A DNA stretch of 64,000 nt from Candidatus Aquidulcis sp. (GTDB lineage Bacteria > Chloroflexota > Anaerolineae > UBA4142), in NCBI GenBank assembly GCA_020723345.1, contig DYJA01000003.1, positions 12,972 through 76,971 on the forward strand, in the 5' to 3' direction. Numbering within the stretch: position 1 is the first letter of the stretch; each line of letters starts with the position of its first letter. The translations under genes were made by a program, and so were the position numbers. Below are positions 3,059 to 60,537 of the stretch, one piece after another. The notes under the pieces are model-generated. The model was not told where the DNA came from and did not search any database. It was given only the letters and a program-made list of their open reading frames with translations.

Positions 3059-3940
3059 ATGCCCTCTCTTCCACCATTCGATCAGCCGGGCAATTGGTAT
3101 AAAGGAAATCTGCACACGCACACCACGCAATCGGACGGCAAGCCGACGCCCGCCGAAAGTATGCAGTGGCACGCCGAGCACGGTTATCATTTTCTCGCGA
3201 TCACTGATCACAATCGGCTGACGAATCCATTCGACTTTCTGGCAAAGCCGCCGCTCCTCGCGATTCCCAGTCTCGAATATTCGACGCGGCGCGGCATGGT
3301 CGAATATCACGTCATCGCGTTGGACTTGAACACAATGCCGATCGCGCCCGCGCGCGATCCGCAAGACACGATCGACGCGGTGAACGCGGTCGGCGGCACG
3401 TGCTTTATCGCGCATCCGTACTGGCACGATCACACGCTCGACGATTTGATCATGTTGAGAGGTCACATCGGCATCGAGATTTTCAACACGGGCTGCTGGG
3501 TCGAGATCAACAAGGGGCACTCGCTCGTGCATTGGGATTTGTTATTGCGGCGCGGACAGACGCTGTGGGGACTCGCGACCGACGATTCGCACTTTCGCTA
3601 TCCCGATCACGGACGTGGCTGGGTGAACGTGCGCGCCGAGAAACTCGACCAGCCCTCGATCATCAACGCGCTGCGCGCCGGACAATTTTACGCGACGATG
3701 GGTCCCGAAATCTACGATGTGCAGTTGGAAGGACGCCAGGTCACCGTGCGCTGTTCGCCTGCGCGTTCGATCTTTCTGATCGGCGACATCTGGCACTGCC
3801 CAAACGCCGCGCAATCCTGGGATGGCAAACCGCTCACCGAGGCGACGTTCACCTTGCATCAGGGTCAACGCTACATCCGCGTCGAAGTCGTAGACATGGA
3901 CTATCAGTCGGCGTGGACGAATCCGTACTTCCTTCCGTGA
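3059..3940 (+). CDS. PHP-domain metal-dependent phosphoesterase (CehA/McbA-like)
   Basis: 'GNLHTHTTQSDGKPTP...HGYHFLAITDHN' is the PHP His/Asp signature. 293 aa. Confidence 0.8.
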   Translation: MPSLPPFDQPGNWYKGNLHTHTTQSDGKPTPAESMQWHAEHGYHFLAITDHNRLTNPFDFLAKPPLLAIPSLEYSTRRGMVEYHVIALDLNTMPIAPARDPQDTIDAVNAVGGTCFIAHPYWHDHTLDDLIMLRGHIGIEIFNTGCWVEINKGHSLVHWDLLLRRGQTLWGLATDDSHFRYPDHGRGWVNVRAEKLDQPSIINALRAGQFYATMGPEIYDVQLEGRQVTVRCSPARSIFLIGDIWHCPNAAQSWDGKPLTEATFTLHQGQRYIRVEVVDMDYQSAWTNPYFLP

Positions 3941-5098: not shown

Positions 5099-6571
5099 AT
5101 GACTCACTTTGAACTCCTCACAGCAGAACAAGTCAACGAAATCCACGCCGCGTCGCTCGAAATACTTGAGAACGTCGGTTTGCTGGTGCGGAACGAAAAC
5201 GCACGCGCGCTTTTCGCGCGGCACGGTTGCCGCGTCGACAACGCAACAAACATCGTCAAGTTTCCGCGTGCCGTCGTCGAACAATATCGCGCGGCATTTC
5301 CGCCGACGTTCACTTTTCACGGACGCGATCCAAAATATGATCGCACCATCCCACGCGATCGACCGGTGATCGTCACCGGCAGTTCCGCGCCGGATTTGGT
5401 CGATCCGGTGACCGGGCAAGTGCGCCGCGCGTACTCGGACGACATCGCGCGCATCGCGCATCTCATCAACGCGTTGCCGGGTTACGACGTGTTTTCCATT
5501 TCCACGCTCGCCGAAGACGCGCCGCCCGGTTACCACACGATCGCGCGGCTGTACCCGTCGGTGAAGAATTGTGTCAAGCCGGTACGCTGCAACGCGTTGA
5601 ACGCCGACGACGCGGAAAAAATTCTGCGACTCGGCGCGCTCGTCGCCGGAAGCGAAACCGCGTATCGCGCGCGTCCGTTCATCACGGGACATTTTTGCCC
5701 GGTCGTTTCGCCGCTCACGATGGACGTTGACTCGACCGAGATGCTGATCTATTTCACCGCGCGGCAACTGCCTAATTACGCGACGATCGTGCCAAACGGC
5801 GGAATGTCGTCGCCGCTGACGCTGCTGGGAACGCTCGCGCAAGGCAACGCGGAATTTCTCGCGTGGGCAACGTTGGCGCAAATGGCGCATCCCGAAACGC
5901 CGCTGATCTACAGTTCGCTCTCGACGCTCGCGGATATGCGGCGCGGCAACTATGCGCCCGGCGCGATCGAAACGGGGATGTTGCACATCGCGCACGCGCA
6001 AATGGCGCGGTTTTACAACGTGCCCTCCGGCGGTTACATCGGCTTGACAAATTCCAAACTGAACGACGCGCAAGCCGGGTACGAGTGCGGCATGTCGGTC
6101 GTCGCGGGGTTGCTTGGCGGCGCGGATATGTTCAACCTGGGTGGCTTGCTCGACGCGCTGACGACGTTTGACTTTGGCAAAGCGGTGACTGACAACGAAA
6201 TCGCGTTGATGCTGAAACGATTGCAGCGCGGTTTCGAATTCAGCCGCGAAAACATGTCGCTCGATCTGATCGCCGAAGCAAAGCCGGGCGGAACGTTCAT
6301 GGACAAGCCGCAGACGCTCGATTTGATGAAGACCGCGCTCTTCTTGCCGGACATCGCGGATCGTAACGTGCGCGACCGCTGGCAGAAACAAGGCGCGCTG
6401 GACGCGCAAGCGCGCGCGCTGAAACGCGTGCGTGAGATTTTGGCGCGCGATAACCCGGCGGTCTTTTCGCCGGAGGTAGACGCGCGCGTGCGCGCCGCGT
6501 TCGCCGGATTGGTCAAAGGGGATTCCGTGCCGCTGAACAGTCAACAGTCAACAGTCAACAGTCAACGGTAA
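5099..6571 (+). CDS. Second MttB-superfamily methyltransferase, non-pyrrolysine type
   Basis: 'FELLTAEQVNEIHAASLEILENVGLLVRNENARALFARHGCRVD'. No in-frame TAG. The C-terminal 'LNSQQSTVNSQR' is encoded by (CAGTCAA)n heptamers. Confidence 0.85.
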   Translation: MTHFELLTAEQVNEIHAASLEILENVGLLVRNENARALFARHGCRVDNATNIVKFPRAVVEQYRAAFPPTFTFHGRDPKYDRTIPRDRPVIVTGSSAPDLVDPVTGQVRRAYSDDIARIAHLINALPGYDVFSISTLAEDAPPGYHTIARLYPSVKNCVKPVRCNALNADDAEKILRLGALVAGSETAYRARPFITGHFCPVVSPLTMDVDSTEMLIYFTARQLPNYATIVPNGGMSSPLTLLGTLAQGNAEFLAWATLAQMAHPETPLIYSSLSTLADMRRGNYAPGAIETGMLHIAHAQMARFYNVPSGGYIGLTNSKLNDAQAGYECGMSVVAGLLGGADMFNLGGLLDALTTFDFGKAVTDNEIALMLKRLQRGFEFSRENMSLDLIAEAKPGGTFMDKPQTLDLMKTALFLPDIADRNVRDRWQKQGALDAQARALKRVREILARDNPAVFSPEVDARVRAAFAGLVKGDSVPLNSQQSTVNSQR

Positions 6572-6610
6572 TCTGTTCACTGTTTACCATTCACTGTTCA
6601 CTGTTCACTG
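6537..6610. repeat. Heptamer-repeat hairpin: (CAGTCAA)4 then (TTCACTG)n
   Basis: Read directly. The left arm supplies the last codons and the stop of the MttB-2 gene. Confidence 0.85.
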
Positions 6611-10035: not shown

Positions 10036-10099
10036 CAGTCAACAGTGAACAGTGAACAGTAAACGGTCTACTGTTCACTGTTCACTGATCACTGTTCAC
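10036..10099. repeat. Heptamer-repeat hairpin (CAGTGAA)n / (TTCACTG)n
   Basis: CAGTCAACAGTGAACAGTGAACAGTAAAC ggtc TACTGTTCACTGTTCACTGATCACTGTTCACTG. Confidence 0.85.
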
Positions 10100-10109
10100 T
10101 GGAGTAACT

Positions 10110-11358: not shown

Positions 11359-12762
11359 ATGGTTGAGATCATTACTGGCATCCGAGCCGGACGCGCAAAA
11401 ATCCTGCAGCGGCGTGGGCGGCTGACCGAAACCGTTCCGCCTACGCTCGCCGACCGATTGCAGAAAACTTTTGGCGAGCCGCTGACGCCCGAGCAAGCCG
11501 TTGCGCGCATCATCGCCGACGTGCGCGCGCGCGGCGACGCGGCGCTGCGCGACTGGACGCGCCAACTCGACGGGGTCGCCCTCTCGTCGATCGCGGTGAC
11601 GCCGGACGAAATGGACGCGGCGTACGCGGAAACGCCGAGCGCGGTGCGCGACGCGCTCGCGCGCGCGGCGGCACGCATTCGCGCGTTTCACGAAAAGCAG
11701 AAACCAAAATCGTGGTTGTCAGGTAGGGGCGAAACATTCGCGCGAGTGCGTTCGCAATTCAACGAAGATGTGCGTTTCATGGAAGATAGAAATGCGGAAG
11801 ATGACTTGAATGCTTCGCCCCTACTGGGGCAACGCATCATTCCGCTCGCGCGCGTCGGCGTGTACGTGCCGGGCGGTACCGCGCCCCTGCCCTCGTCGCT
11901 GCTCATGTCTGCGATTCCCGCGCAGGTCGCGGGCGTGCGTGAGATCGTCGTCGCGACGCCGCCCACGATCGCGCCTGCGATTCTCGCGGCGGCAAAAATC
12001 GTAGGAGTCACGCGCGTCTATGCGCTGGGCGGCGCGCAGAGCATCGCCGCGCTCGCGTTCGGCGCGGAATCCGTCGCGCGCGTCGACAAGATCGTCGGCG
12101 CGGGCGGCTTGTTCACGACGATAGCGAAGCGGCAAGTGTTTGGCGCGGTCGGCATTGACGGCTTGTACGGTCCAACGGAAACGCTGCTGATCGCGGACGA
12201 TTCCGCGCATCCCGCGTGGTGCGCCGCGGATCTGCTCGCGCAAGCGGAGCACGACATACTCGCGACGAGCATTCTGGTTACCACTTCCCGGTTACTCGCT
12301 GATCAAGTCGCTCAAAATCTCGAATCTCAAATCTCCAATCTCTCCCGACGCGCAATCATCGCGCAATCTCTCGCCAGCCAGGGCGCGATCATCATCGTCG
12401 AAAATTTGGACGAGGCGATGGAGTTGGGCAACGCATTCGCGCCGGAGCACCTATGCCTGCTCGTGCGCGAACCCTGGAACTGGGTGGGCAAAGTAGAGAA
12501 CGCGGGCGGCGTGTTCGTGGGCGAGTGGACGAACGAAGCGCTCGGCGATTACGTGATCGGTCCGAGCCACGTGATGCCGACGGCGGGCACCGCGCGCTTT
12601 TCGTCGCCATTGAACGTGAACGATTTTGTGAAAATCACGAGCGTGTTCAGCGTGAGCGCGCGTGAGGCGCGTCAACTCGGCGAAACCGCGGCGACGCTCG
12701 CGGAAGCAGAGGGGCTGACCGCGCACGCGAACGCGATCAGACAACGAATGAGGAACGAATAG
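11359..12762 (+). CDS. hisD: Histidinol dehydrogenase carrying two in-frame repeat insertions
   Basis: 'VGVYVPGGTAPLPSSLLM', 'LAQAEHD' and 'APEHL' motifs. See findings for the 102-bp TIR element (11723-11824) and the (AATCTCN)4 tract (12316-12343). Confidence 0.9.
   Translation: MVEIITGIRAGRAKILQRRGRLTETVPPTLADRLQKTFGEPLTPEQAVARIIADVRARGDAALRDWTRQLDGVALSSIAVTPDEMDAAYAETPSAVRDALARAAARIRAFHEKQKPKSWLSGRGETFARVRSQFNEDVRFMEDRNAEDDLNASPLLGQRIIPLARVGVYVPGGTAPLPSSLLMSAIPAQVAGVREIVVATPPTIAPAILAAAKIVGVTRVYALGGAQSIAALAFGAESVARVDKIVGAGGLFTTIAKRQVFGAVGIDGLYGPTETLLIADDSAHPAWCAADLLAQAEHDILATSILVTTSRLLADQVAQNLESQISNLSRRAIIAQSLASQGAIIIVENLDEAMELGNAFAPEHLCLLVREPWNWVGKVENAGGVFVGEWTNEALGDYVIGPSHVMPTAGTARFSSPLNVNDFVKITSVFSVSAREARQLGETAATLAEAEGLTAHANAIRQRMRNE
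11723..11824. mobile_element. 102-bp miniature element with 17-bp terminal inverted repeats, in frame inside hisD
   Basis: GTAGGGGCGAAACATTC at 11723-11739 and GAATGCTTCGCCCCTAC at 11808-11824 are reverse complements (16/17). Length is 34 codons. Confidence 0.7.
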
Positions 12763-14087: not shown

Positions 14088-15212
14088 ATGTCGAATTTTG
14101 ATGCCACCAAATTGCTCCGCGAAGACCTGAACGATTTTCCGCCGTACTCGATGGGACACGTGCCGCTCGCGGAGTTGGACTCGCTCGTCAAGTTGGACTT
14201 GAACGAAAACACGTACGGACCGTCGCCCAAGGCGCTCGCCGCCGTCGCGCAGATGCGGCACTATCACCGCTACGTCGGACAGCAGGAATTGCGCGAGGCG
14301 ATCGCGCGCTATGTCGGCGTGGGGGTGGAACACATCGTCACCAGCAACGGCGCGGACGAGATGATCGATCTGGTGCAGCGCATGTTCCTCAATCACGGCG
14401 ACGCGATTGTGGACTGCCCTCCGTCATTCGAAATGTACGCGTTCTTCGCGCGCGTGAACGGCGCGCGGATCGTCCGTGTTCCACGGCGAGAGGATTTTTC
14501 CGTCGACGTGGATGCGGTAGAAAAAGCGATTTCAGATTTCAGATTTCAGATTTCAGATTCTGCAAACCCGACTGCGGAATCTCTCATCTCCAAGCTCCAA
14601 TCTCCAAAGTTGGTATTCCTCGCCAACCCCAACAACCCCGACGGCATGATGATCCCGCCTGCCGATGTGGAACGACTGCTCGCGCTGCCGGCGCTCCTCG
14701 TACTCGACGAGGCGTACGCGGAATTTGCTGGGCAGAGTTACGCCGCGCGCGTGCCGACCCAATCGAATTTGATCGTGCTCCGAACGTTCAGCAAGTGGGC
14801 GGGGCTGGCGAGTCTGCGGGTCGGCTACTGCATCGCGCCGCAGGCGATCGCGGCGAAAATTCTCCAATGCAAAGCGCCGGAGAATGTGAACGCGGCGGGA
14901 AACGTAGCGGCGCGCGCGTCGCTCGACGACCTTGAATATCTGCACGCGAATGTGCGCCGCATTGTCGCGGAACGCGAACGCCTGGCGGGAGAATTCGGGA
15001 AACTCGGCTTTCTCCAGCCCCTGCCCAGCCGCGCGAATTTTCTCTTCTGCCGCGTGCTCGGGCGCGACGCCAGGCAAATCCACGATGCGCTCGCCGGGCA
15101 CGGCATTTTGATCCGCGCATTCGGCGCGCCGCGCTTGCGCGAGTACATTCGCATTGCCATCGGAACGCCGGAGGAAAATGAGACCGTGTTGAAGGCGCTG
15201 AGGGAAATGTGA
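14088..15212 (+). CDS. hisC: Histidinol-phosphate aminotransferase paralog (copy 2) with an in-frame heptamer insertion
   Basis: Same motifs ('LDLNENTYGPSP', 'NPNNPDG', 'TFSKWAGLASLRVGY'). (GATTTCA)4 and AATCTCC-type heptamers at 14528-14612 encode 'SDFRFQISDS...SLISKLQSPK'. Confidence 0.85.
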   Translation: MSNFDATKLLREDLNDFPPYSMGHVPLAELDSLVKLDLNENTYGPSPKALAAVAQMRHYHRYVGQQELREAIARYVGVGVEHIVTSNGADEMIDLVQRMFLNHGDAIVDCPPSFEMYAFFARVNGARIVRVPRREDFSVDVDAVEKAISDFRFQISDSANPTAESLISKLQSPKLVFLANPNNPDGMMIPPADVERLLALPALLVLDEAYAEFAGQSYAARVPTQSNLIVLRTFSKWAGLASLRVGYCIAPQAIAAKILQCKAPENVNAAGNVAARASLDDLEYLHANVRRIVAERERLAGEFGKLGFLQPLPSRANFLFCRVLGRDARQIHDALAGHGILIRAFGAPRLREYIRIAIGTPEENETVLKALREM

Positions 15213-16400: not shown

Positions 16401-16447
16401 TGAACAGTGAACAGTGGTCATCCGACTGTTGACTGTTCACTGTTGAC
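16399..16447. repeat. Heptamer-repeat hairpin (CAGTGAA family) between hisB and hisH
   Basis: TAGTGAACAGTGAACAGTGG...GACTGTTGACTGTTCACTGTTGAC. Confidence 0.8.
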
Positions 16448-16459
16448 TTGAGTGACAAG

Positions 16460-18341: not shown

Positions 18342-19160
18342 ATGCTTGCAAAGAGAATAATCCCCTGTCTCGACGTTCACGCGGGAAAAGTCACGCGCGG
18401 CGTCCAATTTGGTAAAGCCGAAAAAGGCGAACTGCGCAACGTCGGCGATCCCGTCGAATGTGCGCGCGTGTACGACGCGGCGGGCGCGGACGAACTCGTT
18501 TTCCTCGACATCACCGCGTCGTCCGAAAAGCGCGAAATCTTTCTGGACGTGGTGCGCGCGGTCGCGGATCAAGTTTTCATTCCGTTCGCGGTCGGCGGCG
18601 GCGTGCGCAGCGTCGAAGATTACCGCGCGATTTTGCTCGCAGGCGCGGACAAGGTCGCGATGAATACCGCGGCGGTCGAAAATCCCGCGATGATTACGGA
18701 CGCGGCGGAAAGATTTGGGGCGCAGTGTGTCGTCGTCGCGATAGACGCAAAATCGGAATTCGGAATTCAAAATTCAAAATTCGGCAATCGAAAATCGAAA
18801 ATCGAAAATCGAAAATGGCAAGTCTACACGCACGGCGCGCGCGTTCCCACCGGCAAAGATGTCGTCGAGTGGGCGCGCGAAGTGGAAGCGCGCGGCGCGG
18901 GCGAAATTTTGCTGACGAGCATCGACCGCGACGGGACGCGCGATGGATTCGAAATCGAACTGACGCGCGTGGTCGCGGACGCGGTGACGATCCCGGTGAT
19001 CGCGTCGGGCGGCGCGGGGCGCATTGAACATTTCGCCGACGCGATTATCGACGGACACGCGAGCGCGGTGCTCGCCGCGAGTTTGTTTCATTTTGGCGAA
19101 TTGACGGTCGCGCAGGTGAAGGAGTATTTGGCAAGTCGCGGTGTGGCGGTGAGAAGATGA
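18342..19160 (+). CDS. hisF: Imidazole glycerol phosphate synthase cyclase subunit with an in-frame heptamer insertion
   Basis: 'RIIPCLDV', '[11 protein letters not shown]', '[10 protein letters not shown]', 'VIASGGAG'. Positions 18749-18817 are AATTCNN/AAATCGA heptamers encoding '[21 protein letters not shown]'. Confidence 0.95.
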
Positions 19161-20205: not shown

Positions 20206-20229
20206 TTGAAATCACACGGAGGAAAGAAC

Positions 20230-20394
20230 ATGACAGCCAATTGCCCGGAATGTGAAGCCGAAATCACACTCGCCAAGCCGATGCGCGGCGAGATCGTCGT
20301 GTGCCCCGATTGCGGCGTGGAACTCGAAGTGACGAGCGAAAATCCGCTCGCGTTCGATCTGGCGCCGCAGGAAGAAGAGGATTGGGGAGAATAA
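20230..20394 (+). CDS. lysW: Amino-group carrier protein LysW
   Basis: 54 aa. Zn-ribbon 'CPECEAEI...VCPDCGVEL' and an acidic tail ending 'EEEDWGE'. RBS GGAGGAAAG. Confidence 0.9.
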
Positions 20395-20395
20395 A

Positions 20396-21252
20396 ATGAA
20401 ACTCGCCGTTCTGTATTCGCGCGTCCGCGCCGAAGAGAAATTATTGTTCGAAGCGCTGGACGCGCGCGGCATCGCGTACGACAAGATCGACGACCGCGAA
20501 GTCATTTTTGATTTGCAAAATCCCGGCGCGTGGCGCGAGTACAGCGTCGTGCTGGAACGCTGCATCAATCACGCGCGCGCGCTCAACGCGCTCAAGATTT
20601 TGAACGATTGGCGCATCCCGACCGTCAACACGGCGTACGTCGCCAGCGTGTGCGGCGACAAACTCACCACGTCGACCGCGCTCGTGCATCACGGCGTGCC
20701 GACGACGCGCATCAAAGTCGCGTTCACCCCGGAATCCGCGCTCAAGGCAATCGAAGAACTGGGCTATCCGGTCATTCTGAAACCCGCCGTCGGATCGTGG
20801 GGACGTTTACTTTCCAAAGTGAATGATCGCGAAGCCGCCGAAGCGATTCTCGAACACAAAGAGACACTCGGTTCGTACCATCATTCGATTTTCTACATTC
20901 AGGAGTACATCCGCAAACCCGGGCGCGACATTCGCGCGTTCGTCATCGGCGATGAAACGGTCGGCGCGATCTATCGCGCGTCGGAACATTGGATCACGAA
21001 CACGGCGCGCGGCGGTCAGGCGACCGGCTGCCCGGTCACGCCGGAACTCAATCGCATTTGCGTCGCGGCGGCAAAAGCAGTCGGCGGTGGCATCGTCGGC
21101 GTAGACTTGCTCGAAGATCCGGAGCGCGGCTTGCTCGTCAACGAAGTCAACTACACGATTGAATTTCGCAACAGCATCACGACGACCGGCGTGGACATTC
21201 CGCAGCGCATTCTCGATTACGTCTTCGCCGTCGGTCGCGGCGAGATCAAAGT

Positions 21253-21259
<7 letters not shown>
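20396..21259 (+). CDS. lysX: LysX (RimK-type ATP-grasp alpha-aminoadipate-LysW ligase)
   Basis: ATP-grasp fold, '[14 protein letters not shown]', 'IYIQEYI', 'GVDLLE...LVNEVN'. Immediately after lysW. Confidence 0.85.
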
Positions 21260-22505
<1,246 letters not shown>

Positions 22506-22508
22506 AGA

Positions 22509-22600
22509 AATGACAAATGAGCAAATGACAAACGTGATGCGTGATGCGTGATGCGTGAGAATCAATTACCAATTACCAATTACCAATTTTCAAATGGCAA
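22509..22600. repeat. Three consecutive heptamer tracts (AATGACA-like, GATGCGT x3, AATTACC x3)
   Basis: GAAATGACAAATGAGCAAATGACAAAC GTGATGCGTGATGCGTGATGCGTGAG AATCAATTACCAATTACCAATTACCAATTTTC. They encode the hacA N-terminus. Confidence 0.85.
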
Positions 22601-23918
22601 GACGTTTGCCGAAAAGGCACTCGCGCGCGCGTCCGGTCAGCGCGAGGTCGTGGTCGGGCAAATCGTGGACGCGGCACCGGATGTCGCGCTGTCGCACGAC
22701 AACACCGGCGCGATTGCGAAAATTTTCCGCGCGCTCGGCGTCACCCGTGTCAAGTACCCGGAACGATTGGCGATTGCGCTCGATCACGCGGTTCCCGCGC
22801 CGACAACGCAGCACGCGCAGAACCACGCGGACGCGCGCAAGTTCGTCGAAGAGCAAGGGATCACAAATTTCTTCGAGGTCGGGCGCGGCATTTGTCACCA
22901 AGTTTTGAGCGAGGAAGCAATCGTCTTGCCGGGACAACTGATCCTCGGCGCGGACTCGCACACGACGCACTATGGCTGGATGGGCGCGTTCGGCGCGGGC
23001 GTCGGGCGCAGTGAGATGGCGGCGATCTGGGCGACCGGCGAGTTGTGGCTGCGCGTGCCGGAATCGATCAAGATAATCGTGGACGGCGAACTGCCGCGCG
23101 GCGTCACGTCGAAAGATTTGTGTCTCAAAGTGATCGGCGACCTCGGCGCGGACGGCGGACTGTACGCGTCGGTCGAATTTCACGGCGGCGCGATTTCCAA
23201 ACTGTCGCTTGAATCGCGCATGGTCATTCCGAACATGATGGCGGAGTTTGGGGTGAAGAACTCCTATTTACCCCCAGACGTGTCCGTATTCCGATGGCTC
23301 GCGCTACGCAAATTCAAAATTCAAGATTCGAAATTCGAAATTCAAGACGCGCAACTGCGCGAGGAAATTCTGAATTACGAATTACGAATTACGAATTCGG
23401 CTCTCTACCCTGACGACAACGCGACCTACGCCGCGACGTACCGCTACGACGCGGCGCAACTTGAGCCGTTCGTCGCGTGTCCGCATCGCGTCGACAATGT
23501 CAAGCCGCTGTCGCAAGTGCGCGGGACGCGCGTGCAACAGGCGTTCATCGGTACGTGTACGAACGGACGCATCGAAGATTTGGCGGCGGCAGCGGAAGTT
23601 TTGCGCGGCAAAAAAATCGCGCGCGGCACGCGCTTGCTCGTCATTCCCGCGTCGTCCCAAGTGTTGAGTGAAGCGATCGCGCGCGGGTACATTCAAACTT
23701 TCATCGACGCGGGTGGAGTGATCGGCGTGCCGGGCTGCGGTCCGTGCATGGGCAATCACATGGGCGTTCCCGCGCCGGGCGAAGTGACGATCTCGACCGC
23801 GAATCGAAACTTTCGCGGCAGGATGGGAACGCGCGAGTCGGAAGTGTATCTCGCGAGTCCGGCGGTCGTCGCCGCGAGCGCGGTGGCGGGGGTGATTGCG
23901 GATCCGCGTGAGGTGTAA
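22551..23918 (+). CDS. hacA: Homoaconitase / 3-isopropylmalate dehydratase large subunit with heptamer-encoded N-terminus and internal insertion
   Basis: '[11 protein letters not shown]', '[11 protein letters not shown]', 'GCGPCMGNH', '[12 protein letters not shown]'. Heptamers at 22536-22600 and 23309-23400. Confidence 0.9.
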
Positions 23919-24014
23919 GAACACGCTGAGACGCGCATCGACGCAGGGGCATTCTGTCCTTGCGTTTTCGTTCAACTCGGTGTAGATTATTCTCCGCTTG
24001 AACAGGAGGACGAT

Positions 24015-24230
24015 ATGCGAAACGAGTTTACAGCCGTCATCGAAAAAGATGGCAAGTGGTACATCGGATATTGCCCCGAGATTCCGGGAGCGAACGGTCA
24101 AGGGCGAACAATCGAAGAATGTCGCAAAAGTCTTGCCGAAGCGATCAAACTAATTTTGGATGATCGCCGTGCAGATGCCTTGCGCGGCGTTCCTGCGAGA
24201 GCAAGGCGCGAAATGGTCGTCGTCGCATGA
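24015..24230 (+). CDS. hicB: HicB-family antitoxin
   Basis: 'FTAVIEKDGKWYIGYCPEIPGANGQGRTIEECRKSLAEAI'. RBS AGGAGG. Confidence 0.85.
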   Translation: MRNEFTAVIEKDGKWYIGYCPEIPGANGQGRTIEECRKSLAEAIKLILDDRRADALRGVPARARREMVVVA

Positions 24231-24418
24231 AGCGCGAGGTGTTGCTGCGCCAATTGCGGAAATATGGTTGTTACTTGAAGCGCGAAGGGAAATCCCATTC
24301 GCTCTGGATCAATCCACAGACCGGCGTGGTTGAAGCGGTGCCGCGCCACACCGAAATTCCGAATCGGCTGGCAAAGAAGATTTGTCGTAACTTGACCGTG
24401 CCTGAAATTGGTGGGTAA
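24227..24418 (+). CDS. hicA: HicA-family mRNA interferase toxin
   Basis: 'LLRQLRKYGCYLKREGKSHSLWINP...VPRHTEIPNRLAKKICRNL'. ATGA overlap with hicB. Confidence 0.85.
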   Translation: MKREVLLRQLRKYGCYLKREGKSHSLWINPQTGVVEAVPRHTEIPNRLAKKICRNLTVPEIGG

Positions 24419-24449
24419 AAATCCTACTGCGCGCGATCCGCGGGGCAAC

Positions 24450-24518
24450 CTCGCGAGTCCGGTGGTAGTCGCGGCGAGCGCGGTGGCGGGCGTGATTGCG
24501 GATCCGCGAGAGGTGTGA
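24450..24518 (+). pseudogene. Duplicated 3' end of hacA (about 69 bp remnant)
   Basis: 24450-24518 aligns with 23850-23918 with about 7 mismatches. It still reads '...[22 protein letters not shown]'. Confidence 0.8.
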
Positions 24519-25324
24519 CTGTGACAATTCGTGTCTGTCTCGCGGGCGCGACCGGCTGGGCTGGCTCTGCGCTCGCGCGCGCGATCGCGCAAACGAATGA
24601 TATTGCCGTGGTCGCGGCGGTGTCGCGCACGCACGCGCGGCGCAATCTTGGCGATGTGCTCGACGAACCGCGTCTGACTTGCCCGATCTACGCGACCGCG
24701 CAAGAAGCGCTCGCGGATCCATGCGACGTTTTCTTCGATTACACAAAACCCAAAGTCGCTAAAGCAAATGTCGTAACCGCGTTGCAGCGCGGCGCGCACG
24801 TCGTCGTCGGCACATCAGGATTGACGGACGCCGATTACGCCGAGATCGCGGTAGTTGCGGAACAAAACAAACGCGGCGTGTTGGCGGTCGGAAATTTCGC
24901 GCTCGCGGTCGTCTTGATGCAAAAGTTTGCGGAGATCGCCGCAAAGTACATTCCGCAGTGGGAAATTATCGATTACGCGAGCGACGCCAAAAAAGACGCG
25001 CCGAGCGGAACGGTGCGCGAACTTGCTTTTCGATTGTCGCGCGTTCGCGCGTCCGAATTGACCGTGCCGCTGGAACAAACTCAGGGCATCGTCGAAACGC
25101 GCGGCGCGCGCGTCGCCGGATCACAAGTTCATTCGATTCGATTGACCGGATATACGATCTCCGCCGAAATCATTTTTGGCATGCCCGATCAAAAACTCAC
25201 GATCCGCCACGATGCGGGCAGCAGCGCGCAACCGTACGTGGACGGCGCGTTGTTGGCGATTCGCAAAGTCAATACATTTGTCGGTTTGCGGCGCGGGCTT
25301 GACAGTGTGCTGGACTTGGAATGA
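24515..25324 (+). CDS. DapB-like (4-hydroxy-tetrahydrodipicolinate reductase family) oxidoreductase
   Basis: 'VCLAGATGWAGSAL' dinucleotide fold, 'VVGTSGLT', 'KKDAPSGT'. The GTG start overlaps the stop of the hacA remnant. Confidence 0.7.
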   Translation: MTVTIRVCLAGATGWAGSALARAIAQTNDIAVVAAVSRTHARRNLGDVLDEPRLTCPIYATAQEALADPCDVFFDYTKPKVAKANVVTALQRGAHVVVGTSGLTDADYAEIAVVAEQNKRGVLAVGNFALAVVLMQKFAEIAAKYIPQWEIIDYASDAKKDAPSGTVRELAFRLSRVRASELTVPLEQTQGIVETRGARVAGSQVHSIRLTGYTISAEIIFGMPDQKLTIRHDAGSSAQPYVDGALLAIRKVNTFVGLRRGLDSVLDLE

Positions 25325-26226
25325 TCTACCAATTCATTACACTCACTCACACCGACGCGTGCGGCGCGCCCTACACCATCGGTCACGCGATCACTTGGGA
25401 GCCGCGACGCGTGCGGATGGAGTTGATCGCGTCGCGCGACGCGCTGGCGCGCGACACCGCCACGTCGGCAGGCGCGCCGTACTACGTCAAGATCGGTCTG
25501 GCGGATCGCGTGACGCCGTACCCAGCGTGGAGCGTTCGCACGGCGATTCAGAAATGTCCGGGCGGCATCGCGTATTTCAGCGCGGGCGAATCCGGTATGC
25601 AAGTCAATCCGCTGATCGAAAACGGGAAACTGTTGACGAAACCACAGGGTGCGCGCGCGGCGCATCAAAAAGACTGGACGCCGCTCAACGACACGTTCAC
25701 CTTTTTCCTTCAGCACGCGGACGCGCGCGCGGAGATTCGCGATCTGCGCATCGCGCAAAATCGAATTCACGCGGATGATCGCAAACACATTTCGGACGGC
25801 ACAAATGGTTTTGCCGTGCCGCGCATTTTGAAAAACGGCGCGCGCGTACCGCTGAAAAATCCGCCGCCGGGCAAAACCGCGCGCGGCGGCGAAACGCTGT
25901 ACGAACTCGGCGCGCCTGCCGCGCTCTCCGCGATCGGTTTGACGGCAGCAGGACGCGCGGTTTGGATCGGCTTGATCGGCGACACGGAAAATCCGACGGA
26001 CTGGGATCGCGTCGGAACGGAAGAGGACTTGGCGCACTATTTGCTCGACCTGGGTGTGACGGACGCGGTATTCGCCGGAGTGAGCGGCGATGTACAATAC
26101 TACGACGCGCGAACGCAAACGCTGTGCGTTGCCGCAGAGCGCCCCAAGCCGGAAGATATGCGTTGGGTGTTGATGCCAGGACAGACTGAACGCGGCTTGG
26201 CATGCATCGTCGAATTGGTGGAATAA
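25321..26226 (+). CDS. Hypothetical protein (no family confidently recognised)
   Basis: 301-aa ORF with ATGA overlap to the upstream gene. Codon usage resembles its neighbours. The antisense ORF of similar length is judged a shadow. Confidence 0.55.
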   Translation: MIYQFITLTHTDACGAPYTIGHAITWEPRRVRMELIASRDALARDTATSAGAPYYVKIGLADRVTPYPAWSVRTAIQKCPGGIAYFSAGESGMQVNPLIENGKLLTKPQGARAAHQKDWTPLNDTFTFFLQHADARAEIRDLRIAQNRIHADDRKHISDGTNGFAVPRILKNGARVPLKNPPPGKTARGGETLYELGAPAALSAIGLTAAGRAVWIGLIGDTENPTDWDRVGTEEDLAHYLLDLGVTDAVFAGVSGDVQYYDARTQTLCVAAERPKPEDMRWVLMPGQTERGLACIVELVE

Positions 26227-26786
26227 TGCCATTTCAATTTCACAAACTCGAAATCCCTGAAGTCATTCTCGTCCAGGTTTCCGGGCAACCCGACACGCGC
26301 GGCTTTTTCCGCGAAATCTATCGCCAAAGCGAATTTGCCGCGCACAGCATCCCGGCGTTCGTCCAGGACAATCACTCGCGTTCGACGCGCGGTGTGCTGC
26401 GCGGACTGCACTATCAAATGCATCCGCGCGCGCAGGGCAAATTCCTCATCGTCGCGCGCGGCGAAATTTTCGACGTGGCGGTCGATCTGCGGCGCGGTTC
26501 GCCGACGTACGCGCGCTGGGTCGCGCAAACGCTCTCCGCCGAAAACGGTTGTATGCTGTACGTCCCGCCCGGCTTCGCGCACGGCATTTGCGTGCTGAGC
26601 GACTTTGCCGACCTCGTCTACAAAGTCACCGCCGAATACGCGCCCGACTTGGAACGCGGCGTTATCTGGAACGATCCGGACATTCGCGTCGCGTGGCCCC
26701 TCGCCAATCCCAGTTTGTCGACGCGCGACGCGCAGTTGCCGTTGCTCCGCGACGCGGACAATAATTTTGTTTTCACAATGAGGTGA
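26226..26786 (+). CDS. rmlC: dTDP-4-dehydrorhamnose 3,5-epimerase
   Basis: 'DTRGFFREIY', 'QDNHSRSTRGVLRGLHYQ', 'KFLIVARGEIFDVAVDLR', 'LYVPPGFAHG'. Confidence 0.9.
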   Translation: MPFQFHKLEIPEVILVQVSGQPDTRGFFREIYRQSEFAAHSIPAFVQDNHSRSTRGVLRGLHYQMHPRAQGKFLIVARGEIFDVAVDLRRGSPTYARWVAQTLSAENGCMLYVPPGFAHGICVLSDFADLVYKVTAEYAPDLERGVIWNDPDIRVAWPLANPSLSTRDAQLPLLRDADNNFVFTMR

Positions 26787-26790
26787 AACT

Positions 26791-27180
26791 ATGCCCGACA
26801 AAACTATCGCACAAAAATTAGCGATCAAAGAAGATAGCCGCGTGTTCATCGTCAACGCGCCGCGCGGCTACAAAGCGAAACTTGGCGCGCTGCCGAAGAA
26901 CGCGCGCCTCGTCGCCGCGCTGACGAAAGAGGTGGACGTGATCCAGGTTTTCGTCGCGACGCGCAAAGAACTCGAAGCGCATCTGCCCGAATTGAAACCG
27001 TACCTTGCGCCGCACGGAATTTTGTGGATCACCTATCCCAAAGGATCGTCGAAAACAAAGACCGACATCAACCGCGACAACATTCGCGCGTACGCACGTT
27101 CGCTGGGCTTGGAAGCGGTCGCAATTTTTGCGGTGGACGACGATTGGTCGGCGCTGCGTTTGAAGACGATGGAGCACTGA
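26791..27180 (+). CDS. DUF3052-like small protein
   Basis: 129 aa, '...DVIQVFV...LWITYPKGSSK..TDINRD'. The family name is from memory. Confidence 0.6.
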   Translation: MPDKTIAQKLAIKEDSRVFIVNAPRGYKAKLGALPKNARLVAALTKEVDVIQVFVATRKELEAHLPELKPYLAPHGILWITYPKGSSKTKTDINRDNIRAYARSLGLEAVAIFAVDDDWSALRLKTMEH

Positions 27181-27908
27181 TGCCGCTCGAATTGCTCAGG
27201 TCGATCACCGGGCGCATCCTCGTCGAATCGCATCGCGGCGCGGAATTGCTCGCGCCCGCCAATTCATTGCGCGCGATCCAAATCGGACACGCGCGCGGCG
27301 CGGACTTGCTCGAAGTGGATGTGCAGTTGAGCGCGGACGGCGTCGCGTTTCTGCGCCACAATTACAATTTACCCGACGGACGACCGTGCCGCGACGTAAC
27401 CTGGGACGAACTCGCGTGCGTCGTCGTCGCAGGCGAACCACTGCCCAAGTTGGAAGACGTGCTCGCGTGGGCGCGCGACGCGGACGCGAAACTCTCGCTC
27501 GATCTCAAGACCGGCTTTACGCCCGAAGGCAAACTCGTCGCCGAAGTTTTGCGCGTGATCGAACGAACGCAGACGGCGAATCGCGTGATGCTGATCGCGT
27601 GGGATCACCACGAACTCGCGCGCGTCAAAAACGCGCATCCCGAAATCACGACGCGCGCGTTGATTCGCGGGCGACTTGTCAATTTGACCGACGCGCTCAA
27701 AGCGAGCCGCGCCGATTGCGTCAGTTTATCGTACGATCTGATTCGCCCGCGCGACGTCGAACAGGTTCACGCGCTGGGTGTCGCGATCACGCTCGCGGAA
27801 CTGTGGCAACCCGATTTCGATTTTGTCGCGCGCTCCGGCGTGGACATGGTGAGTTGGGGCGATCCGGCGGAAGCAAAGCAGAAACTAGATGATTCATCCA
27901 TTCACTGA
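27180..27908 (+). CDS. Glycerophosphodiester phosphodiesterase family protein
   Basis: 'ESHRGAELLAPANSLRAI...GADLLEVDVQLSADG'. ATGA-type overlap with the upstream gene. Confidence 0.75.
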   Translation: MPLELLRSITGRILVESHRGAELLAPANSLRAIQIGHARGADLLEVDVQLSADGVAFLRHNYNLPDGRPCRDVTWDELACVVVAGEPLPKLEDVLAWARDADAKLSLDLKTGFTPEGKLVAEVLRVIERTQTANRVMLIAWDHHELARVKNAHPEITTRALIRGRLVNLTDALKASRADCVSLSYDLIRPRDVEQVHALGVAITLAELWQPDFDFVARSGVDMVSWGDPAEAKQKLDDSSIH

Positions 27909-28686
27909 CAAAACCCGCCTGCAAGAGCAATATCGCGATGGCACGAACCTCGCGGCGCGCGCCGCGTTACACGCGCGCTTTACGACCGCGCCGCGTCCCT
28001 GGACATCCTGGGTGTTCGATCATCTCGATTTGCCGCGCGACGCGCGCGTGCTCGAAATCGGCTGCGGCACGGGCGGACTGTGGCGAAGCAACCGCGAACG
28101 CATTCCAACATCGTGGCGATTGACGCTCACCGATTTTTCGTTCGGCATGGTCGAGACGACGCGCGCGACCGACATCACCGCGAATCTCGCGCAAAGCGAT
28201 GCGCAGCAAATTCCCTTTCGCGACGCGGCGTTCGACGCGGCGATCGCGAATCACATGTTGTACCACGTGCCCGATCTGCCGCGCGCGCTCGCGGAAATTC
28301 GGCGCGTACTGAAACGCGGCGGCAAATTTATCGCGGCGACGAATGGCATCGCTCACATGCGCGAACTAGACGAACTGACCAGCCGTTTGGGGGTTCACCC
28401 GGGCAGCAACGCGCTCCAGTTCGGATTGGAAAACGGCGCACAAATTCTTGCCAGATATTTCTCATCAGTGCAACGAATTGATTTCGCCGACGCGCTAATC
28501 GTGACCGAAGCCGAACCACTCGTCGCGTATATTCTCTCGATGTTCTCGGCGCAAAAGATACGCGGCACTGAAGCTGAACAACAGTTGCGCCAAGTGATCG
28601 CCGAGCGCGTTACGCGTGATGGCGCGATCCGGATCACAAAATCGCAGGGCTTGTTCATTGCGGAAGGACAAATTTCCAATCTCTAA
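27889..28686 (+). CDS. Class I SAM-dependent methyltransferase
   Basis: Motif I 'VLEIGCGTGGLW', then 'AAIANHMLYHV' and 'LKRGGKFIAAT'. Confidence 0.85.
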   Translation: MIHPFTDKTRLQEQYRDGTNLAARAALHARFTTAPRPWTSWVFDHLDLPRDARVLEIGCGTGGLWRSNRERIPTSWRLTLTDFSFGMVETTRATDITANLAQSDAQQIPFRDAAFDAAIANHMLYHVPDLPRALAEIRRVLKRGGKFIAATNGIAHMRELDELTSRLGVHPGSNALQFGLENGAQILARYFSSVQRIDFADALIVTEAEPLVAYILSMFSAQKIRGTEAEQQLRQVIAERVTRDGAIRITKSQGLFIAEGQISNL

Positions 28687-28705
28687 TCTCCAATCTCCAA
28701 TTTCC
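28671..28705. repeat. Heptamer tract (AATYTCY)5
   Basis: AATTTCC AATCTCT AATCTCC AATCTCC AATTTCC. Confidence 0.85.
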
Positions 28706-28717
28706 CGTCAGGGCGCA

Positions 28718-29224
28718 ATGTCCGTCGTGCTGTCCGAAGATCGCCAACAGGTTCTGTTGCTGCGCCGCGAAGTTTTTATTTTGTGGGACTTGCCCGGCGG
28801 CGCAATCGAAAAAGGCGAAAGCCCGGCAGACGCGGCGGTGCGCGAAGCGCGCGAGGAATCGGGCTATCACATCGCGATTGAGCGCGCGGTCGGGCGGTAC
28901 TTGCATCAATCGGTGTACGGACGCGGCGATCAGTTGACGCACACGTTTCGCGCGCGCGTCGTCGGCGGCAAAGCGAAACATTTCGGACTGGAGACGACTG
29001 GCTTGCGCTGGTTTCCGGTGAACGCGCTGCCACGCGGCGTCGAACCGCTGCAACGCCAGATGATCGCGGACGCGCTGTCCGATGCGGCTGAGCCGGTCGA
29101 ACGACGGATTGATTTTGCGCGATGGAAACTCTATCCGGCGCGCGTCGTCTTCTTCGTGATGCGCGTACGGAATATCGCGGCGTGGCATGTTTTGAAATGG
29201 TGGCGCGGTCGAACGCGCAAGTAA
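28718..29224 (+). CDS. NUDIX hydrolase
   Basis: Nudix box 'GGAIEKGESPADAAVREAREESGY'. Confidence 0.85.
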   Translation: MSVVLSEDRQQVLLLRREVFILWDLPGGAIEKGESPADAAVREAREESGYHIAIERAVGRYLHQSVYGRGDQLTHTFRARVVGGKAKHFGLETTGLRWFPVNALPRGVEPLQRQMIADALSDAAEPVERRIDFARWKLYPARVVFFVMRVRNIAAWHVLKWWRGRTRK

Positions 29225-29225
29225 A

Positions 29226-29296
29226 GCCACAGAGAACACAGAGAGCACAGAGAAGAAGTTGTTGTTTTCTCTGTGTCCCCTGTGTCCTCTGTGGCA
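29226..29296. repeat. Heptamer-repeat hairpin (CACAGAG family) upstream of hacB
   Basis: CCACAGAGAACACAGAGAGCACAGAGAAG...TTCTCTGTGTCCCCTGTGTCCTCTGTGG. Confidence 0.8.
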
Positions 29297-29302
29297 AAAA
29301 AT

Positions 29303-29842
29303 ATGGAGCGTTTGATGAAATTCAAAGGGCGGGTTTGGAAATACGGCGACGACGTGAACACCGATGTGATTTTTCCCGGCAAGTACACGTACACGATTAC
29401 GGATCCGAAAGAGCAGGCGCAGCACGCGCTCGAAGATTTGGATCCGAATTTCGTGAGCCAAGTTCAGCCGGGCGACATCATCGTCGGCGGTAAAAATTGG
29501 GGCAACGGTTCTTCGCGCGAGCAAGCGGCGACGTGTCTGAAATATTCCGGCGTCACCGCGCTCATCGCGAAATCGTTCGCGCGCATTCACTTTCGCAACC
29601 TGGTGAACAATGGACTCGCGCCGATTGTCTGCGCGCCTGCGGTCGACGCGATCCAAAATGGCGAGACCGTCGAGATCGATCTCGACGCGCACACGATTCG
29701 CTGCGCCGCCGGCGCGTTCGATTTTCCGCCGCTCTCGCCGACGCTGTTTACGATCATCGAAACCGGCGGCTTGATTCCGATGCTGCGGCGCAAACTCGGC
29801 ACGGAACATCTGCCGATGCCGGAGATTAAGGGAGGAGAGTAG
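29303..29842 (+). CDS. hacB: Homoaconitase / 3-isopropylmalate dehydratase small subunit
   Basis: '[14 protein letters not shown]', '[14 protein letters not shown]', '[17 protein letters not shown]'. The start could also be 29315. Confidence 0.85.
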
Positions 29843-29899
29843 AGATTGGAGATTAGAGATTGCCGGTATCCAATCTCTAATCTCTAATCTCCAATCACT
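29840..29899. repeat. Heptamer-repeat hairpin (GATTRGA / TCYAATC)
   Basis: AGAGATTGGAGATTAGAGATTG ccggta TCCAATCTCTAATCTCTAATCTCCAATC. Confidence 0.85.
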
Positions 29900-31012
29900 A
29901 TGTACAAAATCGCTTGGCTGCCCGGCGACGGGATTGGAAAAGATGTAATGGACGCGGCGCGCGTGGTGCTCGACGCGTTGAAACTGGACGCGCAGTACAC
30001 GCCCGCCGACATCGGTTGGGAGTTCTGGTGTAACGAAGGGGACGCGCTGCCGCAGCGCACGATTGACACTTTGCGCGCGTCGCATTGCGCGTTCTTTGGC
30101 GCGATCACGTCCAAGCCGAAAGAAGAAGCGGACGCGGAACTCGCGCCGAACTTGCGCGGCAAGGGTTTTGTCTATCGCAGTCCGATTGTGCGTTTGCGCC
30201 AGATATTCGATCTGTACGTGAACTTACGCCCGTGCAAAGCGTATCGTGGCAATCCGCTGAATTATCGCGACGACATCAACCTCGTCGTCTTTCGCGAAAA
30301 CACGGAAGGGCTGTACGCCGGAGTCGAATTTCATCCGGTCCCGGACAACGTGCGCCGCGCGCTCGAAGAATCGTCCGGCGCGATGCGCGCGTTCAAAGAG
30401 ATCGCGTCGGACGATATGGCGATCACCGCGCGCGTCATCACGCGGCGCGGCGCGGAACGGATCGTCCGCCGCGCGTTCGAGTACGCGCAAAAACACAATT
30501 TCCCGACGGTGACGCTCGTCGAAAAGCCGAACGTGCTGCGCGAGACGAGCGGGTTGATGACGCGCGTCGCGCGCAAGGTCGCGCGCGATTTTCCCAAAAT
30601 CGAATTGTGGGAAGCGAACATCGACGCGATGATGATGTGGCTGCTGAAAAATCCGCAGCAGTACGGCGTGCTCGTGACGAGCAATCTCTTCGGCGATGTC
30701 GTCTCCGATTTGTGCGCGCAACTTGTCGGCGGGCTGGGTTTCGCGGCAAGCGGCAACATCGGCGACCAGTTCGCGGTCTTCGAACCGACGCACGGCTCCG
30801 CGCCCAAGTACGCCGGACAAAACAAGGTCAATCCAATCGCAACATTCTTCGCGGCAAAGTTGATGTTGGATTGGCTCGGCGAAACGGAAAGAGCGACGCG
30901 CCTCGAAAACGCGATTGCGACGGTGATCGCGGAAGGACGCGTGCGGACGTACGATATGGGCGGCAAAAGTACGACGATGGAAATGGCGGAAGCAGTCGCA
31001 GGCAAATTATGA
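29900..31012 (+). CDS. Homoisocitrate / isopropylmalate dehydrogenase family protein
   Basis: 'IAWLPGDGIGKDV', 'NLRPCKAY', 'VVFRENTEGLYAG', 'SNLFGDVVSDL', 'FEPTHGSAPKYAG'. Confidence 0.9.
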   Translation: MYKIAWLPGDGIGKDVMDAARVVLDALKLDAQYTPADIGWEFWCNEGDALPQRTIDTLRASHCAFFGAITSKPKEEADAELAPNLRGKGFVYRSPIVRLRQIFDLYVNLRPCKAYRGNPLNYRDDINLVVFRENTEGLYAGVEFHPVPDNVRRALEESSGAMRAFKEIASDDMAITARVITRRGAERIVRRAFEYAQKHNFPTVTLVEKPNVLRETSGLMTRVARKVARDFPKIELWEANIDAMMMWLLKNPQQYGVLVTSNLFGDVVSDLCAQLVGGLGFAASGNIGDQFAVFEPTHGSAPKYAGQNKVNPIATFFAAKLMLDWLGETERATRLENAIATVIAEGRVRTYDMGGKSTTMEMAEAVAGKL

Positions 31013-36859: not shown

Positions 36860-36947
36860 AATTCCTATTTGTCATTTCGAGCGTAGCGAGGAATCTCAAA
36901 TCTCGAATCTCCAATTTCCAATCTCTAATCTCTAATACCCAATCTCT

Positions 36948-60536: not shown

Positions 60537-60537
60537 G

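Follow-up and report, generated by a model that had tools for sequence, protein, structure and literature searches.

The 64,000-nt stretch of Candidatus Aquidulcis sp. DNA analysed here (hereafter the window) contains an alpha-aminoadipate lysine operon at 20206-31012, in which lysW, lysX, the homocitrate synthase gene (HCS) and hacA are separated from hacB and the homoisocitrate dehydrogenase gene (HICDH) by about 5.3 kb of unrelated genes. These are, in order, the predicted toxin-antitoxin (TA) pair hicBA, dapB, the gene for a protein designated P301, and genes for a dTDP-sugar epimerase, a DUF3052-like protein, a GDPD, a methyltransferase and a NUDIX protein. The 3' end of hacA is present twice, once at the end of the gene itself and again between hicBA and dapB (Table 1). 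We consider it probable that the two copies are the 3' ends of two hacA alleles, which were stacked by recombination between two versions of a variable interval and not duplicated on the site.

Gene families were assigned by Pfam and NCBIfam profile searches. By its match to TIGR01343, together with its place in the lysine cluster, hacA is a member of the homoaconitase large subunit family (HacA/LysT). The hicBA pair is predicted from family signatures and operon overlap to be a HicAB type II TA system: the start of hicA overlaps the stop codon of hicB (ATGA), and HicB has 7984 homologs at E<=1e-8, several of them named HicB family antitoxin by NCBI or JGI. No NCBIfam model matched HicA, and HicB matches only the UPF0150 core (residues 11-44), with no ribbon-helix-helix or helix-turn-helix DNA-binding domain detected by Pfam. 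Within the 96-nt spacer between hacA and hicB lies a block with -35/-10-like elements (TTGCGT...TAGATT) and an AGGAGG sequence. Nearly all columns of this block are invariant when the window is aligned with the related hicBA-bearing loci L162, L164 and L165 described below (90.7% identity to L162 over 76 nt). A simple sigma-70 scan made no promoter call in the spacer; from its conservation, the block is presumably the promoter and operator of hicBA. Scans for terminators, promoters and hairpins at the locus were negative or uninformative.

An earlier note on this DNA had described the last 22 codons and stop codon of hacA as recurring downstream of hicBA with about seven substitutions, while allowing that an alignment might show the similarity to be much weaker than it seemed by eye. 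It is not weaker: compared base by base the two copies match at 63 of 69 positions with no gaps, at a spacing of 600 nt, and the exact number of substitutions is six. The chance of at least 63 matches in 69 is 1.3e-30 per placement, or about 3e-21 over all placements in 64 kb, and in a repeat scan this is the only long two-copy family around the hacA/hicBA site. To the left of the repeat the similarity ends abruptly, the sole further match being the 7-nt CGCGCGA located 20 nt upstream, and to the right it ends at the stop codon with nothing beyond. From the left to the right copy the six differences are GCG to GTG (Ala to Val), GTC to GTA, GCC to GCG, GGG to GGC, CGT to CGA and TAA to TGA, five of which are silent in the hacA frame; the longest exact run common to both copies is 17 nt. 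Two further observations of the note also stand, as the hicB-hicA pair between the copies is AT-richer than its surroundings (G+C content 0.53 against 0.58-0.60, with 0.60 in hacA and 0.59 in dapB) and both flanking genes, hacA and dapB, are intact. We will refer to the left copy as the working end and to the right copy as the orphan.

The 531-bp insert between the copies encodes hicBA only; there are no inverted repeats at its ends, and no sign of a dedicated recombinase system was seen. Target duplication by a transposon or insertion sequence, from which identical repeats of 2-14 bp are expected, is ruled out by a repeat of 69 nt with six mismatches, no inverted repeats and no transposase, and the note was right to call the repeat atypical of transposases. 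Its suggestion that other cassettes might be flanked by duplicated gene ends found no parallel, as the repeat scan detected no other flanking gene-end duplication of at least 30 nt in the 64-kb window.

Between hicA and the orphan are 31 nt, beginning AAATCCTACTGCGCGCGATCCGCGGGGCAAC, that are unlike hacA and unlike the spacer that follows hicA in L162, L164 and L165, and a search for their source in the window and in loci L001-L176 returned chance GC-rich matches only. This segment, for which no homolog was detected, would mark a non-homologous joint. An 8-bp palindrome CTCGCGAG (containing TCGCGA) at 24450-24457 coincides with the exact start of the orphan, and a 10-bp palindrome GCGGATCCGC is found in both hacA ends, at 23898-23907 and 24498-24507; no link of either to the joint is demonstrable. 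The orphan also lies inside an open frame of 36-37 codons (24408-24518), with candidate starts TTG 24408 and GTG 24411 overlapping the last codons of hicA, and we found no evidence that this frame is translated.

Table 1. Coordinates of the hacA 3' ends, of the surrounding genes and of other features (window positions unless L016 is named)
Feature	Position	Strand	Basis or remark
hacA, homoaconitase large subunit, intact, ends ...ADPREV-TAA	22548..23918	+	PF00330 317.9 bits; TIGR01343 (hacA_fam) 507 bits against a cutoff of 385.7
Left copy, working last 22 codons and TAA of hacA	23850..23918	+	Repeat scan, base-by-base comparison
Spacer hacA-hicB	23919..24014	+	Conserved non-coding block from ~23941
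hicB, predicted short antitoxin, 71 aa, HicB/UPF0150-type	24015..24230	+	PF21748 28.8 bits against a cutoff of 27.3
hicA, predicted toxin, 63 aa	24227..24418	+	PF07927 30.7 bits against a cutoff of 27, residues 6-55
Junction sequence, 31 nt, origin not traced; putative non-homologous joint inside or at right edge	24419..24449	+	Comparison with hacA and relatives
Right copy, orphaned hacA 3' end (22 codons and TGA), no gene body upstream	24450..24518	+	Repeat scan, alignments
dapB, 4-hydroxy-tetrahydrodipicolinate reductase, 267 aa, GTG start	24521..25324	+	TIGR00036 equivalog 157 bits against a cutoff of 122; PF01113 and PF05173
P301, Chloroflexota-restricted protein, no assigned function	25321..26226	+	ATG overlaps dapB stop (ATGA)
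hacB, aconitase small subunit	29273..29842	+	PF00694
HICDH, homoisocitrate dehydrogenase	29900-31012		PF00180
L016, working hacA 3' end	1532-1658		
L016, orphaned hacA 3' ends	3349-3467, 4238-4289		
L016, TumE-family toxin pair	3498-4231		
7-nt arrays, first set	6536-6610, 10036-10101, 12315-12342, 14528-14559, 16424-16448, 18749-18816, 21252-21286		
7-nt arrays, second set	22486-22588, 23310-23397, 28671-28705, 29872-29900, 36892-36946, 58607-58639, 60499-60717		

The right copy ends GTGTGA, which the earlier note took to overlap the GTG start of dapB and to reflect an ancestral translational coupling of hacA to that gene. The overlap of GTG 24515 with the stop codon is present as described, but it is not where dapB begins. 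Because all DapB homologs are of about 267 aa and begin MTIRVCLAG, and gene calls on L001 (a second assembly of this locus) and P0121 give 267 aa from GTG 24521, the start of dapB is placed by these comparisons at GTG 24521, 2 nt past the stop codon of the orphan, and coupling through GTGTGA is not the best reading. In the relatives L172 and L173, hacA is followed after 13 nt by dapB, and this spacer has a AAGAGGAA-type Shine-Dalgarno site preceding an ATG. The orphan and dapB of the window align to that junction (GAGGTGTGACTG followed by TGACAATT in the window, GAGGTATGACTGAAGAGGAACCATGACAATC in L173) minus 11 nt, which comprise dapB's own Shine-Dalgarno site and the A of its ATG. On this point the earlier note was correct: hacA adjoining dapB is a real arrangement, and the right copy is a genuine hacA-dapB junction. 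The only Shine-Dalgarno-like sequence at the right distance from GTG 24521 is GAGGTG at 24510-24515, 5 nt before the start, which is formed by the last two codons of hacA. We infer that this GAGGTG now supplies the ribosome-binding site of dapB, and it is likely that the orphan was retained because dapB in this lineage lost its own site through the 11-nt deletion.

Related loci were collected by HacA scans of genomes and of metagenomes (80 loci each), which gave about 160 hacA loci that were screened for orphans, and by HicB and DapB searches, each followed by contig look-ups, which found the hicBA-bearing and the hacA-dapB relatives respectively. The best HacA relatives are 81-84% identical in amino acid sequence in both scans, which found no near-identical empty site or donor, none being closer than about 84%; look-ups of the exact DapB protein, taken from each of the two start codons, matched no other contig. 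In L162/L163 (a Chloroflexota metagenome-assembled genome (MAG), GCA_040753115.1, and an independent Logan assembly, with a HicB 94% identical to that of the window) and in L164 and L165 (HicB 86% identical), hacA is followed by a homologous spacer (91% identical in L162), by hicB and hicA, and then directly by P301, and both a second hacA end and dapB are absent at this locus. L162 is the closest relative overall, with identities to the window of 94% for HCS, 87-90% for hacA, 89.6% for hicBA and 88% for the epimerase gene. Compared with these hicBA-bearing relatives, the segment specific to the window runs from 24419 to about 25326 and consists of the 31 nt, the orphan and dapB, up to the start of P301.

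The interval from hacA to NUDIX-hacB-HICDH is thus variable in this group of Anaerolineae, with hacA-hicBA-P301 or hacA-dapB versions, and the window carries both versions stacked as hacA-hicBA-(31 nt)-hacA'(69 nt)-dapB-P301. Gene content between hacA and hacB also varies among L002-L010, L174 and L175, and is different in nearly all of the relatives that were compared: hacA is followed by UDG in L002, by ATP-grasp, dapB, RidA and DinB genes in L008 and by nothing in L005, and in L008, which is more distant, dapB lies between hacA and P301. Other DapB homologs are found in unrelated contexts, for example NrdR-dapB in L167-171. A HicA-like match near hacA in L160 belongs to a different hicBA, placed after hacB, and was set aside as irrelevant. 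Two local features of the relatives may be recorded here. In L162 (2611-2717) the P301 homolog is cut to 48 aa by a deletion that reaches the epimerase gene, a further sign that DNA is often lost from the interval. In L164 (about 500-670; L165 1-60) some 170 additional nt separate hacA from the control region of hicBA; with its G/C-rich palindromic arms (CCCTTCCCTCGCAGGGAAGGGG ... CCCCTTTCCTCGGAGGAAAGGGG) this insert resembles a small miniature inverted-repeat transposable element or repetitive extragenic palindrome (MITE/REP-like), and it is absent from the window and from L162.

The relatives bear directly on whether the arrival of hicBA itself could have produced the repeat, as the earlier note proposed. 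In that explanation hicBA was inserted at an ancestral hacA-dapB junction, the insertion duplicated 69 bp, and the copies diverged in place; the duplication might have arisen by fill-in of a long staggered break, or by a small tandem duplication with subsequent insertion at its joint. Direct repeats that flank the insert exactly, with both genes intact, are what such an event would leave, and the hacA-dapB adjacency is real in L172 and L173. However, L162/L163, L164 and L165 have this hicBA in the same place, left junction and spacer included, but neither the duplicate nor dapB, and the 31 nt to the right of hicA have no counterpart in these relatives. Between the window and L162 the identities are 89.6% for hicBA and 89.4% for hacA, and between the window and L164 they are 82.9% and 87.9% respectively; because the divergence of hicBA tracks that of hacA, the hacA-hicBA junction is, on these alignments, old and common to lineages that are 10-17% apart in nucleotide sequence. 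The pairwise identities group the loci as ((window, L162), L164/5), and L162 and L164/5 share one homologous hicA-P301 junction.

Set against the age of that junction, the orphan differs from the working end at only 6 of 69 positions (8.7%), mostly silently. The corresponding hand counts are 9 of 69 for L162 and 8 of 69 for L164 (8 and 7 in the first 66 nt), and pairwise comparison of the orphan, the working end and the L125/L006 hacA ends gives 5/66 differences throughout. The divergence of the orphan from the working end does not exceed that of the hacA ends of other lineages. With its frame and stop codon intact and its differences mostly silent, it has the appearance of a young, ortholog-like sequence. 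A non-coding relic dating from the arrival of hicBA should be far more decayed. The silent bias itself (5/6) has P = 0.009-0.013 if all six differences are neutral decay, but P = 0.31 if half of the changes occurred in the constrained copy. At position 14 the orphan has T (Ala to Val) where 30 of 30 relatives have C, the single clearly derived and non-conservative change; when all six differences were polarised with the 30 relatives, this remained the only one that could be so assigned, the third positions being too variable. A mosaic boundary was also sought in the window hacA against L162 and L002 in 100-nt windows, and gave a weak, unusable shift after about 23490. We know of no insertion mechanism that gives a 69-bp target duplication, which also counts against duplication in situ. 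The insertion model of the earlier note therefore keeps its description of the right copy as a hacA-dapB junction and of two preserved genes, but loses its claim that the landing of hicBA caused the duplication, and we regard a duplication on the site as unlikely.

Stacking of two alleles by recombination would account for these observations. Most simply, this would take a single event, anchored by homology in a conserved flanking gene, with a non-homologous joint on the opposite side, either at 24449/24450 or slightly to its left. Linear DNA could have been joined in by homology-facilitated illegitimate recombination; equally, a small circle bearing part of a hacA end could have entered by a single crossover. 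In both cases the 3' end would have been displaced, in which hacA keeps one full end and the other end is pushed downstream, untranslated and attached to dapB.

Either an incoming hacA end with hicBA displaced the native hacA'-dapB (direction X), or an incoming hacA'-dapB was added behind a resident hicBA (direction Y). We lean slightly towards direction X, as the 31 nt can then be the donor's post-hicA sequence and no filler DNA is needed, the tight ATGA overlap of dapB and P301 looks long-standing, dapB lies between hacA and P301 in L008, and the older orphan in L016 (see below) is the farther from hacA. Both directions contradict a TA insertion that duplicates its target, and hicBA may not be the newcomer.

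Several points weigh against this reading or against its preferred direction. The silent bias, taken alone, is compatible with duplication in situ, given the P value of 0.31. The hacA-dapB-P301 arrangement without hicBA was not found among the sampled relatives, and parsimony on the grouping ((window, L162), L164/5) favours direction Y. The nearest of the sampled donors and recipients reach only about 80-90% nucleotide identity; the joint is unreadable against its parents and microhomology cannot be checked, and no natural competence or other route of DNA uptake is known for these uncultured organisms. A switch in the L001 contig, described below, may reflect either a real recombinant or two co-occurring strains fused in the assembly graph, and is not counted as evidence. 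Finally, orphans are present in 3 of about 160 hacA loci and are occasional, not systematic. The arguments from age and distribution in our view outweigh the substitution pattern.

The orphan-bearing lineages are that of the window itself (L001), L016 and L013, and this recurrence of the pattern counts in favour of stacking. In L016 the working end is followed by SnoaL, glyoxalase and a 249-aa open reading frame (ORF), then by a first orphan, by a 101-aa ORF with a TumE toxin, and by a second orphan. The first orphan is 119 nt long and 89.9% identical, the second 52 nt and 84.6%, the farther one being the more decayed; each runs to its own in-frame stop codon, and both end GAGTTGT, unlike the working end. 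Three of the cargo ORFs in L016, the 249-aa ORF among them, have no Pfam match. In L013 an orphan of about 50 nt lies 96 nt past the hacA stop codon, and the interval between the two (4135-4229) is rich in GGGGAGCA-type repeats.

The recurrence at the same gene in L016 and L013, together with an architecture of intact gene, cargo and displaced end, would also fit site-specific integration. The 3' end of hacA would then be an att site, and an element with a mimic of the hacA end (attP) would give rise to attL, now serving as the working end, and attR, the native end after its displacement, through an integrase since lost or acting in trans. Elements that integrate at the 3' ends of genes and bring a substitute end with them are familiar, and the 10-bp palindrome in the hacA end may be counted in favour of such a site. 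However, Pfam searches revealed no integrase within or beside the inserts, neither that of the window (531 bp) nor those of L016 (about 1.7 and about 0.8 kb). The orphans, of 69, 119, 52 and about 50 nt, begin at different hacA positions and have no common left edge, there is no identical core longer than 17 nt, and a scan of viral contigs found none carrying the hacA-end motif; a further viral-contig scan, for relatives of HicB, was also negative. A hairpin signal is likewise missing, as the folding of 24405-24530 (-24.1 kcal/mol, z = -0.64 against shuffles) is no better than that of shuffled sequence, and the junction region has no Rfam match. The hairpin and Rfam results speak also against an integron attC site, intI elsewhere in the genome not having been searched. 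For these reasons we think site-specific integration very unlikely.

The age of the hacA-hicBA junction might alternatively be reconciled with the repeat if the composite is itself ancient. The ancestor would have been hacA-hicBA-hacA'-dapB-P301, L162 and L164/5 would later have deleted hacA'-dapB, and gene conversion, or selection acting on the orphan, would have maintained the likeness of the two copies in the window. Deletions are frequent in the interval, the truncated P301 of L162 being an example, the more distant L008 has dapB between hacA and P301, and the 3' end of the orphan is plausibly selected as the ribosome-binding site of dapB. However, the hicA-P301 junction shared by L162 and L164/5 would need two identical deletions or transfer of a deletion allele, and selection for ribosome binding covers about 15 nt and not 69 nt at 91% identity with a silent bias. 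An ancient composite seems to us most unlikely.

The structure does not depend on one assembly. The Logan assembly of run SRR13164373 (L001) has it base for base, and between about 23510 and 24627 its identity to the window is 100%. Upstream of about 23510 L001 becomes abruptly unlike the window (68-82% identical) and L002-like (82% to L002). This switch was first read as a recombination breakpoint but was downgraded, as Logan contigs of the same sample are interrupted at 24600-24627, and the exact matches of 30-58 nt between the window and its relatives around the switch in hacA are long enough to allow a graph chimera. The repeat might similarly be suspected to be a chimeric join of co-occurring strains, one with hacA-hicBA and one with hacA-dapB, the more so as related strains are present in the sample (the left 310 nt of L001 are not those of the window) and the contigs break nearby. 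In that case, however, the joint would lie in 31 nt that belong to neither parental type, and the copies share no exact run beyond 17 nt, so there is no k-mer bridge through which an assembler could have confused them; moreover, the products of two assemblers, the 191-kb MAG contig at NCBI and the Logan assembly, agree exactly in sequence. An assembly artefact is barely credible.

Some further features of the window and its gene families are noted here. It is a genuine dapB that is located within this LysW-type lysine operon. The P301 family is small, with 26 matches at E<=1e-40, all of whose given source names are Chloroflexi or Anaerolineae; P301 has no Pfam match of its own, two homologs carry PF09992, and the gene that follows P301 is almost always dTDP-4-dehydrorhamnose 3,5-epimerase-like. 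About 24 tandem arrays of 7-nt units (e.g. AACAGTC, AAAATCG, AATCTCC, GAATTAC) are scattered over the window, mostly at gene junctions, and resemble the heptamer short tandemly repeated repetitive sequences of cyanobacteria. Two of them, at 23310-23345 and 23372-23397, are part of the hacA ORF, where they encode an insertion that keeps the frame, and others cover its annotated first codons (22533-22588); none is found at the hicBA, orphan or dapB junctions. L001 has different short repeats (GGAGCAA and GAAATCG types) at the same place in hacA (100-200, equivalent to window 23300-23400), and such repeats seem to turn over fast and to occupy recombination-prone spots. A 1201-aa ORF on the minus strand (48567-52172) has internal repeats of about 405-440 nt with copies 68-83% identical, for example at 50887-51061, 51292-51466 and 51730-51904.

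If the proposed recombination is correct, the locus offers a view at base-pair resolution of gene turnover inside a core amino-acid operon of uncultured Chloroflexota. Conserved genes would act as homology anchors between which cargoes (the TA pair, dapB, the glycosylase and others) are swapped, and occasionally stacked with an orphan end left behind. The apparent co-option of the orphan as the ribosome-binding site of dapB would be a small case of relic DNA gaining a function. There is also a caution here, in that a repeat on either side of an apparently mobile cassette is not necessarily a target-site duplication, nor is the enclosed cassette necessarily the newcomer. A more speculative proposal, to which we would not assign much weight, is that a TA pair or an essential dapB behind a conserved gene acts as an anti-replacement lock, such that cargo piles up and orphaned hacA ends accumulate. 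A double-crossover exchange across the interval would kill the cell, and the survivors would be rare recombinants with the second joint in the last 50-120 nt or so of hacA. The 600-bp unit of hacA end and hicBA may, in the same speculation, circulate, looping out as a circle via the two copies and re-entering any related hacA by a single crossover; a TA cassette would in this way be mobile without an integrase, with the end of a housekeeping gene as its homology arm.

Comparison with known systems places the locus among familiar recombination footprints, of which it is a new example; nothing here overturns current understanding. Integrative elements at the 3' ends of tRNA, tmRNA and protein genes restore the gene with an element-borne end and displace the native end as a direct repeat on the far side. 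The intact gene and displaced end are similar here, whereas the lack of an integrase and of a fixed core, the variable left edges and the inserts of 0.1-1.7 kb are different. The HicAB family is known for its horizontal mobility, and homologs at 75-83% identity are found in other phyla (KSB1, Desulfomonile, Acidobacteriota). As in other HicAB systems, this is a small two-gene operon with overlapping genes, a putative upstream control region of its own and a composition AT-richer than its surroundings; it differs from HicAB type II systems in that the antitoxin gene comes first and the 71-aa HicB has no recognisable DNA-binding domain, its activity being a prediction.

Homology-facilitated illegitimate recombination, as the original studies are summarised in two later papers, combines one homologous anchor with one illegitimate joint; it can add foreign DNA, and the joint may be marked by a short duplication or deletion (de Vries & Wackernagel 2002; Prudhomme et al. 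2002, via PMC5361080 and PMC3240628). Experimental demonstrations are limited to a few competent species and to conjugation in E. coli. Effector-immunity arrays of the Vibrio cholerae type VI secretion system have been attributed to this process (Kirchberger et al. 2017, PMC5361080). There, as proposed here, a conserved upstream gene serves as the anchor for incoming DNA, whose downstream joint is non-homologous, and a resident downstream gene is retained as its loss is costly; double-crossover replacement is thought to be commoner and stacking rare, which matches the low frequency of orphans among the hacA loci. The gene retained here is dapB (a TA pair in L016) and not an immunity gene, and there is no secretion system or context of competition.

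The same architecture has been described at the rhs loci as C-terminal displacement, for which the proposed route is a circular intermediate that enters by a single crossover within the conserved portion and shunts the old end downstream (Jackson et al. 2009, PMC2935791). The exchanged rhs tips are divergent toxin domains, whereas here the end is that of a near-identical housekeeping gene and the cargo lies after its stop codon, the retained homology is 50-120 nt as against hundreds of nucleotides of rhs core, and the organisms are uncultured Chloroflexota. In both, however, an intact gene is followed by one or more 3' fragments in the same orientation that run to a stop codon (69 nt in the window, 119 and 52 nt in L016, about 50 nt in L013), the fragments retain differing lengths of the conserved gene, each with one or more downstream genes of its own behind it, and arrays grow by successive events, as the two orphans of L016 suggest, with no integrase; single-cargo alleles without orphans (hacA-hicBA-P301 and hacA-dapB) are present in relatives. 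If this likeness holds, 3'-end displacement would extend from the polymorphic-toxin loci of Proteobacteria to a housekeeping gene in another phylum.

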